In this document: piece after piece, positions 18,215 to 24,751 of the stretch | How positions within the stretch are numbered: position 1 is the first letter of the stretch | How the letters are laid out: each line of letters begins with the position of its first letter | IMG/VR virus record: IMGVR_UViG_3300013902_000009 | Span: 35,818 to 99,817 of that record | DNA length: 64,000 bases | Reading direction: 5' to 3' (one strand) | Source of the DNA: a virus | Taxonomy: Duplodnaviria > Caudoviricetes | Notes under the pieces: model-generated | Database searches by the model: none | What the model was told of the DNA's origin: nothing | The model's input: the letters and a program-made list of their open reading frames with translations, nothing else | Made by a program: the position numbers and the translations under genes

Positions 18215-18346
18215 ATGGGTACTAAAACAAAATCCGATAGCAAGCAAAAACAAAAGAAAAAGACTGGTAGACCAAAACCAATGGTGTCAAAAGCAGGTCT
18301 AACTAAAAATAAGTATTCTTGCGGTGGACGAATCAAAAATTCTTGA
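18215..18346 (+). CDS. 43-aa basic microprotein (not in ORF track)
   Basis: MGTKTKSDSKQKQKKKTGRPKPMVSKAGLTKNKYSCGGRIKNS*; AT-rich leader; fills the gap between two genes. Confidence 0.65.
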   Translation: MGTKTKSDSKQKQKKKTGRPKPMVSKAGLTKNKYSCGGRIKNS

Positions 18347-18740
18347 TAGATACATAATTAACAAGCTATTTGTTATAACACTTAAATACGCTCCGGCATT
18401 AATGTCGATATGTTGCATACTAAATACTACCGGAGCGTATTTTGGTTACGAAATGGGTTGGCTAAGTTTTATATCTGGAATATCTTTGATACCTTGGCTC
18501 TTCCTTTTGTTAGCTTCGAGAGTTTTTAAATTTTGTGTATATCATAGGTTTATGCTATATTATATAGCGATTGACAATATTGTAAATATAATTGACTATC
18601 ATATTGGTATTCCTGTTGATGATTACAATATACTTATGATTCATTATATTATACTCGGTGTTATTATGATGATTGCTGTTTATAAACATACTAAAAAGAT
18701 TCACAATGAACGTAAAAGACAAAATAAAAAGACTGCATGA
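18324..18740 (+). CDS. multi-pass membrane protein (about 4 TM)
   Basis: Several hydrophobic helices and a basic C-terminus; GTG start uncertain. Confidence 0.65.
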   Translation: MDESKILDRYIINKLFVITLKYAPALMSICCILNTTGAYFGYEMGWLSFISGISLIPWLFLLLASRVFKFCVYHRFMLYYIAIDNIVNIIDYHIGIPVDDYNILMIHYIILGVIMMIAVYKHTKKIHNERKRQNKKTA

Positions 18741-20157
18741 GGTTGTTGTGTCCCAAAAGACACCCACGGATACTAATGTCTTGTGGATTAAAAAGAATGT
18801 AAATTCAACATTTACATTTTATATTAACGATGGAATCGATTGGGTGACACCATCCTCAAGCTCTTCTTCTGGAACGGAATTATCAGATAAGCAGTTGAAT
18901 GCAATATTTAAAGCTGATAAGATTGTAATAGATGGCGATGGCAATATGTTTCTATCAAACGACGGAACGTATAAATCGCTTGATTCATTCTTGGAAGGAT
19001 ATGCTAAGCTTACAGATATACCTCATTTTACATCGGAGCTAAATAATGATAAAGGCTTTATTACCGAGGTGGACCTGAAAGAAATTTCATATACAAAGAG
19101 TGAAATTGATAACAAAATATTAACTAACGGTGGTTTTAGCGCATCACTTTATTATACAAAGGAAGATGTAGATAATATCGTTAATAATAAAGCAAAGCAA
19201 CTTGAAGCTTTTGATTGCTCCGCATTCTTTAGATTACAAGTTGGTGACGATTGTAGTAAAATATACGCTGCTTTAGAGACAGCTGTTAAGAATAAGAGAA
19301 GACTATATACTACTGTAACAAAGTATGATACAGATACAATATATAAGGAAGTATTCTCAAATTTTGAAAGCTACTATGATGTAGATGATGTATTGTCACC
19401 ATCTGTAAGAATACATGCTCTACTTGATGATGGCCGTATTGAATATGTTACTATAGGTAGCCCAGAGGCTTCAGATAGGACAAATAGTAAATATGCTATT
19501 ATTGAAGAAATCGGTGTATCTGGCAGTCAATATCAACAATATGATTGTACTTACTTTTTTGTATCACCAGAAGGTACTATCGTTGATGAGCATTATGATG
19601 AGTTAGTAAATGCAATTAAAAAGGGGTATTTCCTTTATACTACATATAGTATCTATAAAGATGAAGCCGATAAATATATACAAGTAATTCCTAGCGTAGA
19701 TGATTATAATGCTCCGTGGATTGATTTGATCGCTTTTAATGATTGTGTTGGAGACGAAGGCAACGTAATTGTTGAGTATGTATATATTAGGGAAAATAAT
19801 ACTGAGCAACAAGGTAAGACTATTATAGAGTCTAAAAAAGACAAGCTTCTAGTTGATGATACTATACTTAAGACAGTAAACGGTCAATCTCTAATTGGTT
19901 CTGGTGATATTAAGATAGAATCAGATGTGACATATGTTAATGTACCAGAACTACAAGAAGATTATATGGTACAATCTGGAGAGGAAAATAAAGAGATTAT
20001 ATATACTATTGAAGTAGGCGATACGGTGTATTCTATAACAGGAGATTCAACTCTGCGTTGGATTAATAGTGACGCTCCTGTTGCTAGCGCAAATTGCACT
20101 TATGTAATCTCTGTTATTGGAACGTTTGCGGTATGGGGTGAATTTCCAAAAGAGTAA
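18706..20157 (+). CDS. virion fibre/spike-like protein
   Basis: Likely ATG at 18706; PTDTNVLWIKK, DGDGNMFLSNDGTYK, SELNNDKGFIT, YTKSEID and LKTVNGQSLIGSGDI fibre motifs. Confidence 0.65.
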   Translation: MNVKDKIKRLHEVVVSQKTPTDTNVLWIKKNVNSTFTFYINDGIDWVTPSSSSSSGTELSDKQLNAIFKADKIVIDGDGNMFLSNDGTYKSLDSFLEGYAKLTDIPHFTSELNNDKGFITEVDLKEISYTKSEIDNKILTNGGFSASLYYTKEDVDNIVNNKAKQLEAFDCSAFFRLQVGDDCSKIYAALETAVKNKRRLYTTVTKYDTDTIYKEVFSNFESYYDVDDVLSPSVRIHALLDDGRIEYVTIGSPEASDRTNSKYAIIEEIGVSGSQYQQYDCTYFFVSPEGTIVDEHYDELVNAIKKGYFLYTTYSIYKDEADKYIQVIPSVDDYNAPWIDLIAFNDCVGDEGNVIVEYVYIRENNTEQQGKTIIESKKDKLLVDDTILKTVNGQSLIGSGDIKIESDVTYVNVPELQEDYMVQSGEENKEIIYTIEVGDTVYSITGDSTLRWINSDAPVASANCTYVISVIGTFAVWGEFPKE

Positions 20158-20162
20158 TAATT

Positions 20163-20318
20163 ATGACTGCATTTAGAATACTATTAATGATGCATAAGCA
20201 TCAAAAGACAGATACAATCAAGCTTTCCCCAAAGAAGTTAGAGTTTGATTATAAAGAGGACTCAAAAGATCTAAGTGTAGAATCAAATACTGAATGGTCT
20301 ATAAGTGTAAACAAATAA
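20163..20318 (+). CDS. 51-aa protein consisting mainly of the N-terminal half of a BACON domain (not in ORF track)
   Basis: MTAFRILLMMHKHQKTDTIKLSPKKLEFDYKEDSKDLSVESNTEWSISVNK*. Confidence 0.7.
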   Translation: MTAFRILLMMHKHQKTDTIKLSPKKLEFDYKEDSKDLSVESNTEWSISVNK

Positions 20319-20320
20319 TT

Positions 20321-20380
20321 ATTTTTGTTTATATTTTTGTTTATATTTTTGTTTATATTTTTGTTTATATTTTTGTTTAT
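20321..20380 (+). repeat. perfect 12-bp tandem repeat x5 (ATTTTTGTTTAT)
   Basis: Five exact copies; the last AT forms the ATG at 20379. Confidence 0.95.
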
Positions 20381-22067
20381 GGCAACAAATTGGGTAAAAT
20401 TAAGTAAGAGCTCAGGCTCTATGAATGATTCAGTAACAGTTACAGTTAATGAATATACTGGACGTTCTGACCGTGGTAGTACTATTACTGCAAAAACAGC
20501 AGGTGGTGCCACGGATACTACCTCTGTTACACAGAAAGGCAAAGCAGAGTTTATTAGCGTTGGTACATTGACTTATAATGCAGCAGCTAAAGGTAATAAT
20601 TCTGATGGTTCTGATACTATACAGATTACTGGTACTGCTAATACTGCTAATATCAAAGTAGTAGAGGAAACTCTTAACGTATCTAATCCACTCTTAAGTG
20701 GTAGAATCATTGACAATGCTACATATAAAATTCAAGTCAATGCTGTTAATGATACCTCTTGGGATGGTGAAACAGATACTGGTATTGATGGCGACCCCGG
20801 TAAGGATGCACAATATACATTTACTATTGATGTAACTATTCCTGAGAATAAGTCAGAGAAGACTAAAACACTTCAATTTAACCTAAAAAATGGTAATTCA
20901 AATGTTTCTACTGAAGCTATTACTATTAATCAAGCTGCTGGTAAGAAGACTTACGGTGATATTACACTTACAGTAGGTTCTTATCAGCAGATTCCTGCTT
21001 CTGGTGGTACTGTTGATGCTCCTTCTATTTCATACTCTCAGCCTTGGGGTTGGAATGGCGCAACCTCAGGTGGTGGCACTATTACTACAGGTGGTACTGT
21101 AACTTTTGCATTTGAAAACGAGGCAGTTGCTAGTGGAGATTATGAATGGACACTTAATCCTACTACAGGTGAAGTAGAAGGAGTTGATCAAGATAATTAT
21201 GTGACCGAAATACATTCAAGTAATGTTATTATTTCAATTAATAGTAATGGTAAGATTGCATCTAAAACAGTTGCTGTAACACAAGAAGCTAACAAGGTTA
21301 CTTATTCTGTTACAAACGTTACTCTTGGAGATACAACAGATATTCCAGCTTCTGGTGGTACAGTATCTTCTACTACAGTTACAGCTAAGGGTTCCAAGAC
21401 TTATACATCTGGTTCTAAAGAAGAGAACATAACTCTTACTAATGGTTCTGATGATTGTGCTATTACTTGGAGTTCTGCTATTACGGCTGCTTCACTTGGC
21501 ACTACAGTCACTAATAGAACCAAAAAGGGCACTCTTACAGCTACAGTTGCTTGGAAGACAGCTGCTACCAATACTGGTTCCGTAGATGTATATCAGGCTG
21601 CTAACACGGCTACTTACAGTGACATCACATTTGATTCTGCCGTTACTACAACAGTATCACTTAAGGCTGATGGAACTCAAAGTCGCAATATGACTGATAA
21701 CTCTAATGTTGGTGCTAAGCAGACTGTTACTTACACTTCTGGTGCTACTAGAACTGAATCTAGCTCTACTTCAAAGGTTGTATTTAGCTTTACACCTACA
21801 GTTAAGACTGCTGCTACAGGATTCGCTTTATCTTCTGATGGAATTGTTTCTGTTGGTGCAAACCCGACAACTACATCAAGAGGCGGTTTTGTAGTTACGG
21901 TTGCTGTTGAAGGCGAGGGTGGCAAGACTGCTACTAGAGAATTTACATTTAATCAGCAAGGTAGTAGCTCTTATATTACAATTACTCCTGATAGCCTCAC
22001 ATTTGCCGCTGCTGGTGAAGAGAAGACTATTACAATTGATTCTAATGACAGTTGGACTCTTGAATAA
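20379..22067 (+). CDS. BACON/Ig-like repeat virion protein 1
   Basis: Starts with a BACON C-half (WVKLSKSSGS..VTVTV...TG..R...IT...VTQ), has IPASGG...Q.AN repeats, ends with a BACON N-half (ITITPDSLTFAAAGEEKTITIDSNDSWTLE). Confidence 0.8.
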   Translation: MATNWVKLSKSSGSMNDSVTVTVNEYTGRSDRGSTITAKTAGGATDTTSVTQKGKAEFISVGTLTYNAAAKGNNSDGSDTIQITGTANTANIKVVEETLNVSNPLLSGRIIDNATYKIQVNAVNDTSWDGETDTGIDGDPGKDAQYTFTIDVTIPENKSEKTKTLQFNLKNGNSNVSTEAITINQAAGKKTYGDITLTVGSYQQIPASGGTVDAPSISYSQPWGWNGATSGGGTITTGGTVTFAFENEAVASGDYEWTLNPTTGEVEGVDQDNYVTEIHSSNVIISINSNGKIASKTVAVTQEANKVTYSVTNVTLGDTTDIPASGGTVSSTTVTAKGSKTYTSGSKEENITLTNGSDDCAITWSSAITAASLGTTVTNRTKKGTLTATVAWKTAATNTGSVDVYQAANTATYSDITFDSAVTTTVSLKADGTQSRNMTDNSNVGAKQTVTYTSGATRTESSSTSKVVFSFTPTVKTAATGFALSSDGIVSVGANPTTTSRGGFVVTVAVEGEGGKTATREFTFNQQGSSSYITITPDSLTFAAAGEEKTITIDSNDSWTLE

Positions 22068-22085
22068 GTCTAATATATATCCAAT

Positions 22086-22114
22086 GAATGTAGGGGATAA
22101 AATCCCCTACATTC
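22086..22114 (+). terminator. 13-bp perfect hairpin between the BACON genes (terminator or processing site)
   Basis: GAATGTAGGGGAT-AAA-ATCCCCTACATTC; weak U-tract. Confidence 0.6.
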
Positions 22115-22144
22115 TATTATTATTAATAGTTAAACAAATTTATT

Positions 22145-24751
22145 ATGGCTAAACCTGCGTGGATAGAAATAATTAATGGCGCATCTGGTAGTGGGTCTAC
22201 AACTAGGACGTTAAAAGCAAAAGCTCATACTGGTAGGTTAAGTAGGTCAGGTTCTATTAAAGGCACTGTATCAAGTGGAGAATCAGACACTGTTTCTCTT
22301 TCGCAAATTGGAGCAAACGAATTTATTAGTATTAATTTGCAATCGTATTCTGTTACAGCCTTGGGAGGAGTTGTAACAATTACTGGTACAAGCAATTCTC
22401 CTTCTTTAAAGATAACCAATCTAAGTAATGCGAGCATTATTTCTAGCAGGTCTTTAAAGATAAATGGAACGACTTATACTTGGGATGGAGATTCATCTCA
22501 TTTAATAGCAAACGACCCCGGTGCTGCTAATACGTATTCTTTTGAAATATCATTAAGTATAACTGAGAATCAAACCGAAAGTTCTAGGTCTACTTCTTTT
22601 TATTTGAGCGATTCTGGCTCAACAGTTGTTAAAACTAGTACTATATCTATAACTCAAGCTGCTGGTGTTAAAACCTATGGAACAGAAGATTTTACTCTAA
22701 ATTATAATATTTGGGATATTCCAGCATCTGGTGGAACAGCAAGTTGTATATATTCATTCACAATCCCTTGGGGTTGGAATGGCAAAACGTCTGGAGGAGG
22801 TACACTAACACAAAATGATGAGCATACTATAGAGTTTAATTATAGAGATGACGGTCCAGATTATCCTTTTGATTGGAGTTTAGATAGCAATACAGGAGAT
22901 ATTACAGTTGCTAGTCTAGGAACAAATGAGACTACTAGCAGTAGTGGTAATATATATATTCAAGCTACTGTTACTATACAGGGTAAGACAATTTATGCAG
23001 AAGATTATGTTGAACAGCAAGCTAATGAAGTTTCCTATAGGTTAGGTGATATAGAATTATCAGTTGATGATATTCCCGCATCCGGAGGAACAGCTAGCGT
23101 TAATTTTATATCAGGAATTGGTTATACTAATTATTCTTCCGGAGAATCATCAACAACCTCTCTGTTTAGTAGTAGTGATGTTTCTATTGACCATAATGAT
23201 GTATCTGCAGATAATCTTGGTACCACAGTAAAGAGTAGAACTAAAGTAGGAACTCTTAATGTTATAGTTACTTGGAATGGTGTTACAGAATTCCCAAGTC
23301 TTGATGTATATCAAGAAGCGAATAAGATAGAAAATACCACTTATGAGGGAGGAGAAATTACTTATGAAGATGTTTCTATTGGAGAAATTACAGATGGATA
23401 TATACCAGCATCGGGAGGAACGGCTACCGCTACAGCGGGAGATGGAAGTCAAAGTTGGTCACGTACAAGTGAAACTAAAATTAATCATTATACATCTGGA
23501 GAACGTGAAGAACTTTTACACGATTTTGCTAGATCGGGTACTGATAAAATATCACCTTCTGTAGATTCTATTAAAGCTGTAGCTGCTTCAAGAGGAACTA
23601 CTGTTGGTTCAACAATAACTTTAAAAACTCAAACTGTTACTTGGATTGGAGAAGGAGGTTTATCTAAGTCTGGTGTCATAGTTATATATCAAGAGGAAAA
23701 CAAGGTAGAAGAAACTTCAACAGAAGGAGGCAATGTTAGTTATTCTGACTTAGTAGCTGGAGATATTACAAATGGTATAATTCCTGCATCTGGTGGAAGT
23801 GCAACTGCAACGGCTGGGAAAGGAAGTGTAGTGAAAGCGATAGAATCTACATATAATGTAAATACATATACATCTGGTTCCATAGACAGAGTTTTAGCTA
23901 ACGCAGGTTCTTCTGAAACTATCGAAGTAGAGCCTTCTGTAAGCTTAATTTCCGCTACTGCTTCTTCTAAGGGTACTACCATATCAGAGCAAACAGTTGT
24001 AAAATCACAAGATGTTACTTGGGAAACAGGTAATTTGTCTGTTTCTGATAATATGTATATTTATCAAGAAGCAAATACAAAATCTATTTCTGAACTAAAA
24101 ACCAATATAGAAACGTTAAATGTTCCAGCGGAAGGTTGTACATATTCATTGCAAGAAATAATAAATCCATTACAATATTATGTTTATACATCTGGAGAAA
24201 AGAAAGAAATAACTCCGATGTGGTTCGGATACGAGCAAGGAGCAAATAGTAATACTTATAATTTCATTACTATAGAATATAACAATATTAGTTTTGGCGA
24301 AAATGATGGAGATGCTAGAAGTGGTGTAGTTACTATTACAGTTAACACTATAGATGAAGATGGTATTGTAGATTATTCTAGTATTATAGATGTTGATATA
24401 TCATTTATTCAGGAAAAAAAGCTTAAAAAACCATCAATGGTTATAGACCACAATGAGTTCTATGCAAATGGAAATTTAACATTTGATAATAATACAACTA
24501 TTGCGATACTTAAAGTTACAGATAATGATAATGCTGGATGGTCAATACATCCATTTTCACAAGGAGCATGGTTATTAATAGATTCTTCGTCACTTGTTAT
24601 TTCTGGTACAGGCGCAAGTGTTATATCTGTTACTGTAAAAGTAAATGAAACTCTTGAAGATAGAAATGGTAATATATCCCTTTATAGCGGAGAAGATCAA
24701 GTCGATAGCGTATCCGTTACGCAATTAGCAATTTCTAAAATTAATCTATGA
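22145..24751 (+). CDS. BACON/Ig-like repeat virion protein 2 (paralog of 20379)
   Basis: Starts with a BACON C-half (PAWIEI..ASGSG...HTGR.SRSG), has four IPASGG repeats and a C-terminal BACON (W...SGTG..VISVTV..N....R.G.I...V.VTQ); shares PWGWNG with the upstream gene. Confidence 0.8.
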   Translation: MAKPAWIEIINGASGSGSTTRTLKAKAHTGRLSRSGSIKGTVSSGESDTVSLSQIGANEFISINLQSYSVTALGGVVTITGTSNSPSLKITNLSNASIISSRSLKINGTTYTWDGDSSHLIANDPGAANTYSFEISLSITENQTESSRSTSFYLSDSGSTVVKTSTISITQAAGVKTYGTEDFTLNYNIWDIPASGGTASCIYSFTIPWGWNGKTSGGGTLTQNDEHTIEFNYRDDGPDYPFDWSLDSNTGDITVASLGTNETTSSSGNIYIQATVTIQGKTIYAEDYVEQQANEVSYRLGDIELSVDDIPASGGTASVNFISGIGYTNYSSGESSTTSLFSSSDVSIDHNDVSADNLGTTVKSRTKVGTLNVIVTWNGVTEFPSLDVYQEANKIENTTYEGGEITYEDVSIGEITDGYIPASGGTATATAGDGSQSWSRTSETKINHYTSGEREELLHDFARSGTDKISPSVDSIKAVAASRGTTVGSTITLKTQTVTWIGEGGLSKSGVIVIYQEENKVEETSTEGGNVSYSDLVAGDITNGIIPASGGSATATAGKGSVVKAIESTYNVNTYTSGSIDRVLANAGSSETIEVEPSVSLISATASSKGTTISEQTVVKSQDVTWETGNLSVSDNMYIYQEANTKSISELKTNIETLNVPAEGCTYSLQEIINPLQYYVYTSGEKKEITPMWFGYEQGANSNTYNFITIEYNNISFGENDGDARSGVVTITVNTIDEDGIVDYSSIIDVDISFIQEKKLKKPSMVIDHNEFYANGNLTFDNNTTIAILKVTDNDNAGWSIHPFSQGAWLLIDSSSLVISGTGASVISVTVKVNETLEDRNGNISLYSGEDQVDSVSVTQLAISKINL

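Follow-up and report, generated by a model that had tools for sequence, protein, structure and literature searches.

In the IMG/VR record IMGVR_UViG_3300013902_000009, three successive putative fibre genes are separated from one another in the middle of a BACON domain: each of the first two genes ends with the first half of the domain and each of the last two begins with its second half. We propose that the products, here called adaptor, shaft (gp20379) and tip (gp22145), are three separate polypeptides of one fibre that are joined non-covalently and in a fixed order, each joint rebuilding one BACON domain from two chains. Known here from genes and models, this reading has in our estimate a probability of roughly 60%; we infer that the chains associate in trans, and likewise their assembly order, the adaptor peptide's role and the fibre's place on the virion. 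The stretch analysed (the window) comprises 64,000 nucleotides (nt), bases 35818-99817 of the source record, which is 99.8 kb long and judged 98% complete by IMG/VR. The three genes, with lengths in amino acids (aa), were identified from open reading frames (ORFs) and from hidden Markov models (HMMs) of the two half-domains, the shaft and tip also from Pfam:

20163..20318, plus strand: adaptor gene, 51 aa (first-half HMM, E 3e-12)
20379..22067, plus strand: shaft gene, 562 aa
22145..24751, plus strand: tip gene, 868 aa

Position and conservation of the split

The 51-aa ORF and gp20379 end with the first ~34 residues of a BACON domain, and gp20379 and gp22145 begin with the remaining ~53. The first halves are adaptor residues 18-51 (nt 20214-20315, ending ...SNTEWSISVNK before the stop) and shaft residues 529-562 (nt 21963-22064, ending ...SNDSWTLE before the stop); the second halves are shaft residues 1-53 (nt 20379-20537, starting MATNWVKLSKSSGS) and tip residues 1-54 (nt 22145-22306, starting MAKPAWIEIINGASGSGS). 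At both joints a stop codon, a spacer and a new ATG thus lie inside the domain, and the same is found in relatives. The Pfam family PF19190 ('Viral BACON', 94 positions) matches the shaft N-terminus at profile positions 42-93, so that the break falls near the middle of the domain. Using HMMs built separately in this analysis for the first and the second half, we searched the whole 99.8-kb genome and obtained two hits for the first half (E 3e-12 and 1e-20), two for the second (E 2e-27 and 7e-12) and no more, in full agreement with the half-domains, coordinates and sequences that a preliminary description of this DNA had given for both boundaries.

The break was then compared among relatives. 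All 24 of those in IMG/VR (~72% identity) carry these three genes, with the cuts at the same residues. A search with the shaft gave 2823 homologues at E<=1e-3, and the best 120 were examined (43-100% identity, 523-577 aa, many on ~100-kb contigs): the break residue is identical down to 43% identity, bar a few truncated or mis-started records. Nearly all of these 120 begin with the motif of the second half (mostly MAKPxW[IV]) and end with SNDSWT[LI][ES] directly before the stop, the exceptions being 13 records with a start called at a later Met and 2 that are truncated. A wider sample, consisting of the 150 best representatives of 50%-identity clusters, contains a second half at the start in 65/150, a first half at the end in 61/150 and both in 39/150; among the half-bearing representatives are proteins of 400 to 1,700 residues whose architectures otherwise differ. 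Across lineages the intergenic spacers measure 2 to 102 nt, in differing frames and with stop codons. Within the shaft, the terminal halves exceed 98% of body windows of the same size in conservation.

The small adaptor ORF is, to judge from its substitution pattern, a real gene under purifying selection. Between it and its counterpart at locus L041, changes are seen at 16 of 28 synonymous and 8 of 125 non-synonymous sites, which gives a ratio of non-synonymous to synonymous polymorphism (pN/pS) of 0.11; for the 72% clade the ratio is 0.34, and stops abound in both remaining frames.

As judged from these sequence comparisons, the split is real, selected and exact in position across a large family, and is not the outcome of decay or of an assembly error. 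The preliminary description had argued against random decay from the identical position of the two breaks. Decay is indeed ruled out, by the family-wide conservation; the two-break argument itself is weakened, since gp20379 and gp22145 are paralogous over about 410 residues (36% identity, E 2e-53) and their N-terminal half-domains consequently share one origin and do not represent two independent breaks. A single fused gene in the relatives, with breaks peculiar to this assembly, was not found either: the split occurs in all 24 relatives, and the only fusions noted are the proteins P0357 and P0265 described below.

Predicted reconstruction of one domain from two halves

Uninterrupted BACON repeats of related proteins have 7-8 residues between two conserved Trp (for example 'SW TVSESLS WLSV'), and 8 residues lie between the same Trp across the shaft/tip break (TLE + MAKPA). 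Two natural fusions join the halves directly. P0357 (920 aa) reads ...SNSNWEFD-MAKPSWITL... and P0265 (554 aa) reads ...SNTNWNIKT-MAEWINIE...; in both, the DNA contains no stop and the start Met of the downstream gene has been kept, and in P0265 the Pfam BACON_2 match crosses the junction unbroken.

Both halves were also modelled by AlphaFold2 on a single chain, consisting of the adaptor, a 22-residue linker encoded by the repeat of spacer 1 (its TAA read as a residue) and shaft residues 1-190. The halves reach predicted local distance difference test (pLDDT) scores of 94-98 and the linker stays below 50. Out of 984 chains, the top match in the PDB is the BACON domain of Bacteroides ovatus GH5 (BoGH5A, 3ZMR chain B; Z score 14.3, root mean square deviation 1.3 A over 86 residues, 24% identity), in an alignment that covers model residues 18-127 and so includes both halves. 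Four strands are predicted in the adaptor half (E19-22, 25-28, 33-41 and 44-50). Searched as one chain, the adaptor and the shaft N-terminus score 33.4 bits against PF19190 (cut-off 25); the shaft N-terminus alone scores 22.2 bits against PF13004, below the cut-off of 25, and the adaptor alone has no match in Pfam. On one chain the two halves are thus predicted to rebuild one canonical BACON beta-sandwich, and the models show them to be compatible, and incomplete alone.

Without their partners, the ends of the shaft are poorly predicted. Its middle comprises about five immunoglobulin-like (Ig-like) domains, and in the AlphaFold2 model of the full-length shaft alone this body has pLDDT values of 80-95, the two ends having 64-68 and 51-62; complete folding of each terminus within its own chain is not favoured by these values. 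The same model aligns to extended five-domain protocadherin ectodomains, strings of cadherin-like domains, so that the shaft looks like a rod of Ig-like domains with its two open ends far apart. The extended shape and the low-confidence ends together speak against a shaft that closes its own N- and C-terminal halves intramolecularly.

The halves fall into distinct sequence classes, adaptor-type and shaft-type for the first half and shaft-type and tip-type for the second, a division that fits specific, ordered pairing. First and second halves balance 2:2 in this genome and, by tally, 4:4 in the complete relative G001.

Adaptor, shaft and tip

Adaptor residues 1-17 form a conserved N-terminal peptide (M-T-A-F-R-I-L-L-M-M-H-K-H-Q) in front of the half-domain. 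Directly upstream lies a further conserved element:

19930..20157, plus strand: C-terminal ~75-residue domain of a 494-aa fibre-like protein (gene 18673-20157), recognised from homologous C-termini

The C-termini of this domain (...VPEL.EDYMV...AVWGEFPK and the stop) are alike at loci L017, L036, L038, L041 and L042; in relatives the domain forms a protein of its own, of 118-148 aa, always directly upstream of the adaptor gene. Here 5 nt separate the stop of the 494-aa gene from the ATG of the adaptor, and the adaptor gene always lies within a few bases 3' of the gene, or gene end, that encodes the ~75-residue domain. Adaptor orthologues of 49-59 aa are present in every lineage that has the upstream domain. 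Because this domain always accompanies the adaptor gene and the N-terminal peptide of the adaptor is conserved, the arrangement suggests that residues 1-17 tie the chain to the protein encoded upstream. The role of initiator or anchor that had been given to the 51-aa protein is conjecture. The ~75-residue domain belongs to no Pfam or PHROGs family, and in the ESM Atlas it matches only unnamed viral clusters.

Some side observations concern these upstream genes. The ~75-residue domain is C-terminal in the 494-aa protein of the window (18673-20157) and a separate gene at L017 (2230-3405, 3419-3775), a further difference of fusion or fission within the fibre module. The first 68 nt of the 494-aa gene, counted from its listed TTG start, coincide with the end of a hydrophobic, membrane-like 138-aa ORF (18324-18740); the 494-aa gene probably begins in fact at an internal ATG (MNVKDKIK...), where the matches of relatives begin too. 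Several neighbouring fibre proteins have N-termini with a common 'LW.K....W' motif, which may be a docking peptide.

At the other end of the series, the tip consists of its N-terminal half-domain, a stretch of shaft paralogy that ends near residue 400, two repeats of ~104 aa and a complete C-terminal BACON domain (PF13004, 47.1 bits, matched part residues 808-860, nt 24566-24724); the C-terminus of this gene had been described as closed, and this last domain bears that out. Proteins of 499-1076 aa share its first 175 aa at 59-100% identity and end in one of several unrelated C-termini that recur among them. Patterns of this kind usually mark a constant attachment module that bears an exchangeable distal binding part, which suggests that gp22145 provides such a part. 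Its earlier designation as the tip agrees with an N-terminal half that is kept and a distal part that is variable and exchangeable. As a separate observation, three homologues (P0121, P0122 and P0123) are 100% identical over their first 175 residues and have lengths of 868, 972 and 1076 aa; these 104-aa steps match the ~104-residue repeat, present twice in the tip of the window (about residues 395-605), and point to a copy number of fibre domains that varies between near-identical phages.

Proposed joint and alternative explanations

At each joint the first chain would supply about four N-terminal BACON strands, up to and including the SNxxW strand, and the next chain would supply the remaining strands (W[IV]..SGxG..TGR..R..Q), the chain ends meeting in the loop that connects the two conserved Trp. 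The series most likely begins with the 51-aa adaptor (first half), continues with the shaft gp20379 (second half at its start, first half at its end) and ends with the tip gp22145 (second half followed by the distal binding part). The 17-residue peptide of the adaptor probably links this chain to the protein encoded directly upstream, and the conserved half-domain of the tip would let phages exchange distal parts with the joint kept.

Of the explanations that do without such a joint, an artefact of assembly or sequencing, or the recent decay of one long BACON-repeat gene, could appeal to nothing beyond the general frequency of broken genes in metagenome assemblies, and is ruled out for all practical purposes by the same architecture, which recurs in assemblies made independently (hundreds, of several sources) and persists in lineages with as little as 43% identity, and by purifying selection on every piece. 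Recoding (readthrough, frameshifting or ribosomal bypass) would give one long polypeptide, and it is true that fused homologues exist and that adaptor and shaft of the window lie in one frame with a single TAA between them. We nevertheless hold it to be highly improbable: the frame relation varies (53 nt at L042, 48 nt with two in-frame stops at L017, 2-102 nt elsewhere), the 77-nt spacer 2 shifts the frame, with stops in the new frame immediately ahead of the tip ATG, an ATG and the MAKP motif stand precisely at the break in nearly every homologue of shaft or tip, and terminator-like hairpins separate the genes. Readthrough of the TAA in particular was rejected, the frame relation not being conserved.

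More serious, and still unlikely, is the possibility that no complementation in trans takes place: the half-domains would be conserved end modules that pack against their own chain or bind some other partner, and the DNA at the break would be mainly a site of homologous recombination for the exchange of modules. Tips that share their N-terminal half and have several unrelated C-termini are a classic sign of recombination at conserved boundaries, and the counts of halves are unbalanced in some examined stretches. Against this explanation, the halves retain the core residues of BACON and the canonical spacing of the Trp, their protein sequence is better conserved than that of the body, their model confidence is low alone and very high together, and the natural fusions give one continuous domain. 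Recombination and docking are in any case compatible, and both can hold. A shaft that polymerises, the C-terminal first half of one gp20379 completing the second half of another, with the adaptor as starter and the tip as cap, seems to us a little less likely again. Both ends of gp20379 are open, as are those of two additional proteins of G001 (205 and 221 aa); L038 and L043 contain a C-terminal first half without a visible partner; and the shaft gene lies between a promoter-like repeat and a terminator-like hairpin, so that separate and higher expression is possible. The distinct classes of first and second halves, however, are more in line with specific pairing than with free self-pairing, first and second halves are equal in number here (2:2), and no device for length control is visible.

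Several points weigh against the joint of two chains itself. The tether of the single-chain model is artificial, and AlphaFold knows the BACON fold, so that the model speaks for compatibility and not for assembly. The halves are unbalanced in some of the stretches examined (3 first to 2 second at L036, 2 to 1 at L038, a first half without visible partner at L043), and, as weak evidence, a search for longer adaptor-containing proteins, which could be fusions with the upstream domain, gave none. Taken as a whole, the earlier interpretation of ordered assembly by domain complementation gains from a split that is selected and exact, from the natural fusions, the fold on one chain, the weak ends of the shaft and the variable tip; its argument from two breaks does not carry that weight, and its likeness to pili is loose.

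Recurring parts in related phages

The loci compared are labelled L017, L036, L038 and L040-L044, and parts of the same kinds recur in them in other combinations. At L040, an anchor protein that ends in a first half is followed after 2 nt by a shaft and after another 2 nt by a tip that starts with a second half. L036 has a 49-aa adaptor and, besides it, a 532-aa anchor ending in a first half, then a shaft, then a 172-aa tip; in P0357 anchor and shaft are fused. A given shaft might sit on alternative anchors; in some relatives a small adaptor occurs alongside a head-fibre-like anchor.

The anchors of L036 and P0357 contain 3-4 copies of the Ig-like domain of gp29, the dimeric head fibre of phicrAss001 (PF25641, Head_fiber_dimeric), with about 50% identity in the L036 anchor. 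In a BLASTP comparison of gp29 with that anchor, only the Ig-like domain aligns (residues 55-118), and the capsid-binding N-terminal segment of gp29 (residues 1-58) has no similarity to the N-terminus of the anchor. We considered these anchors as capsid-binding head fibres and rejected the idea, PF25641 matching the Ig-like domain of gp29 and not its capsid-binding N-terminus. In the window itself, none of four proteins (adaptor, shaft, tip and the 494-aa protein) matches PF25641.

G001 (locus L044, G001:C1:36800-39600) carries on its minus strand two ORFs, 2120-1455 (221 aa) and 1403-786 (205 aa), each made up of a second half, one Ig-like domain and a first half. These adjacent genes resemble minimal 'link' units, open at both ends, and lie ~10 kb from the main cluster; a search of the whole genome of the window with the half HMMs gave no equivalents.

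A wider proposal, to which we give even odds, is that the split BACON domain acts as a general 'snap-fastener' of gut-phage fibres, in which standard half-domains set the order of adaptors, shafts, short links and tips across genes and, after recombination, across phages.

Spacers and possible expression signals

Two features lie in the spacers between the three genes:

20320..20380, no strand: spacer 1, a perfect 5 x 12-bp tandem repeat (TATTTTTGTTTA) between adaptor and shaft genes, seen in the sequence
22086..22114, plus strand: terminator-like hairpin in the 77-nt spacer 2, with a 13-bp stem, a 3-nt loop and a T-rich tail

Within the window, exact copies of TATTTTTGTTTA (five) occur only at 20320-20380, and sites with 1 mismatch occur at 1536 and 35693. 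Each 12-bp unit contains TAnnTTTG, which we take to be the Bacteroides -7 promoter motif. That the repeat is a promoter is a guess: the variant at L042 lacks an exact TAnnTTTG, and a sigma-70-type scan was uninformative. The repeat is present as 4 x 12 bp at L041 (3950-4000) and as 4 x 13 bp at L042 (4026-4078, 53 nt), and the more distant L017 has an unrelated spacer of 48 nt with two in-frame stops. Because spacer 1 consists of 4 x 12 or 4 x 13 bp in the closest relatives, the frame shared by adaptor and shaft in the window is a coincidence.

The hairpin of spacer 2 has a predicted RNA folding energy of -21.5 kcal/mol (z -4.7), and hairpins of unrelated sequence stand at the same place after the shaft gene at L017, L036 and L038 (z -5.2 to -6.6). 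Since hairpins follow the shaft gene in four lineages, shaft and tip may be expressed at different levels. Spacer 2 also shifts the reading frame, with a TAA and a TAG in the tip frame within 30 nt upstream of the tip ATG. In the spacers of L036 (7669-7770 and 8290-8385) and L040 (8105-8179), a hairpin stands ahead of TAACTTTG or TACCTTTG, which are themselves ~20-25 nt from the following ATG; both match the TAnnTTTG motif, which suggests terminator-promoter cassettes between fibre genes.

Genomic context

The split-BACON locus closes a run of tail and fibre-like genes and lies ~5 kb upstream of the capsid gene. The major capsid protein matches the crass capsid family, the nearest being that of IAS virus (54% identity), ahead of Bacteroides crAss isolates; because of this match, the phage is placed as an uncultured member of Crassvirales, the capsid protein being the sole protein that places it. 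Nucleotide and protein searches of an annotated phage collection with the locus, a shaft homologue and the anchor N-terminus as queries returned no match, and PHROGs contains no family for the adaptor, the shaft, the tip or the upstream domain.

Implications

Crassviruses are the most abundant human gut viruses, and how their flexible fibres are built up from many fibre proteins is unresolved in the only virion structure (PMC10172136). If our reading is correct, the split joint explains how separately encoded segments find each other, and distal parts could be swapped without disturbing assembly, which bears on host range and on mucus-binding specificity. It would also explain why such proteins are under-annotated by gene callers and Pfam, because half-domains fall below thresholds. 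Gene fission normally cuts between domains; an Ig-like domain that has been split in nature, with the split kept by selection in hundreds of lineages, is therefore unusual. As a natural joining principle for virion appendages, the joint would in addition offer protein engineering a ready-made modular connector.

Comparison with known systems

Read together, the two halves carry the BACON sequence signature and are predicted to adopt its fold (PF13004/PF19190; 3ZMR), and like the BACON-repeat proteins of crAss-like phages they are encoded among fibre genes (PMC6949934). In described BACON proteins the domain is continuous in one chain, often in tandem arrays, whereas here it is divided between two gene products; the report on BACON repeats in crAss-like phages by de Jonge et al. 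2019 (PMC6949934) makes no mention of split domains. The preliminary description knew of no account of this split architecture, and in keeping with this we found no description of a split-domain fibre joint in the searchable literature, the coverage of which is partial, so that its silence does not prove novelty.

Split DnaE inteins, and the engineered SpyTag/SpyCatcher split of the Ig-like CnaB2 domain, are fragments that reassemble. As proposed here, two incomplete polypeptides fold into one domain; those systems, however, involve splicing or a covalent bond or are man-made, whereas here nothing points to covalent chemistry, and the halves would serve to join parts of a structure.

Chaperone-usher pili (Fim, Pap, CFA/I) and the type V pili of Bacteroidia are head-to-tail fibres in which an incomplete Ig-like sandwich is completed by the neighbouring subunit. 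The analogy to donor-strand complementation drawn in the preliminary description is apt in that an incomplete Ig-like fold would be finished by the next subunit, and the CfaA-CfaB and FimC-FimA complexes are among the fold neighbours of the rebuilt domain (Z 11.2 and 9.6). It is otherwise loose: the pili donate one (G) strand through a short N-terminal extension, whereas here about four strands would be donated (33-35 residues, ~40% of the domain and half of the hydrophobic core). There is, moreover, no sequence relationship, and assembly here would be cytoplasmic. No chaperone or usher came up when the adaptor, the shaft, the tip, the 494-aa protein and five further structural proteins nearby were scanned with Pfam and PHROGs, a selection that is not exhaustive for the window.

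A further parallel is found among phage fibres. The long tail fibre of T4 is built from the separate gene products gp34, gp35, gp36 and gp37, joined end to end. Fibres of the T4 type and of phicrAss001 share with the proposed one a fixed order of gene products and an exchangeable distal receptor-binding part. In phicrAss001, short N-terminal peptides dock the fibres, and gp22 binds further fibre proteins through joints that are unresolved (Bayfield et al. 2023, PMC10172136). Known fibre joints are contacts between complete, mostly trimeric domains, whereas the joint proposed here is a single monomeric Ig-like domain shared by two chains.

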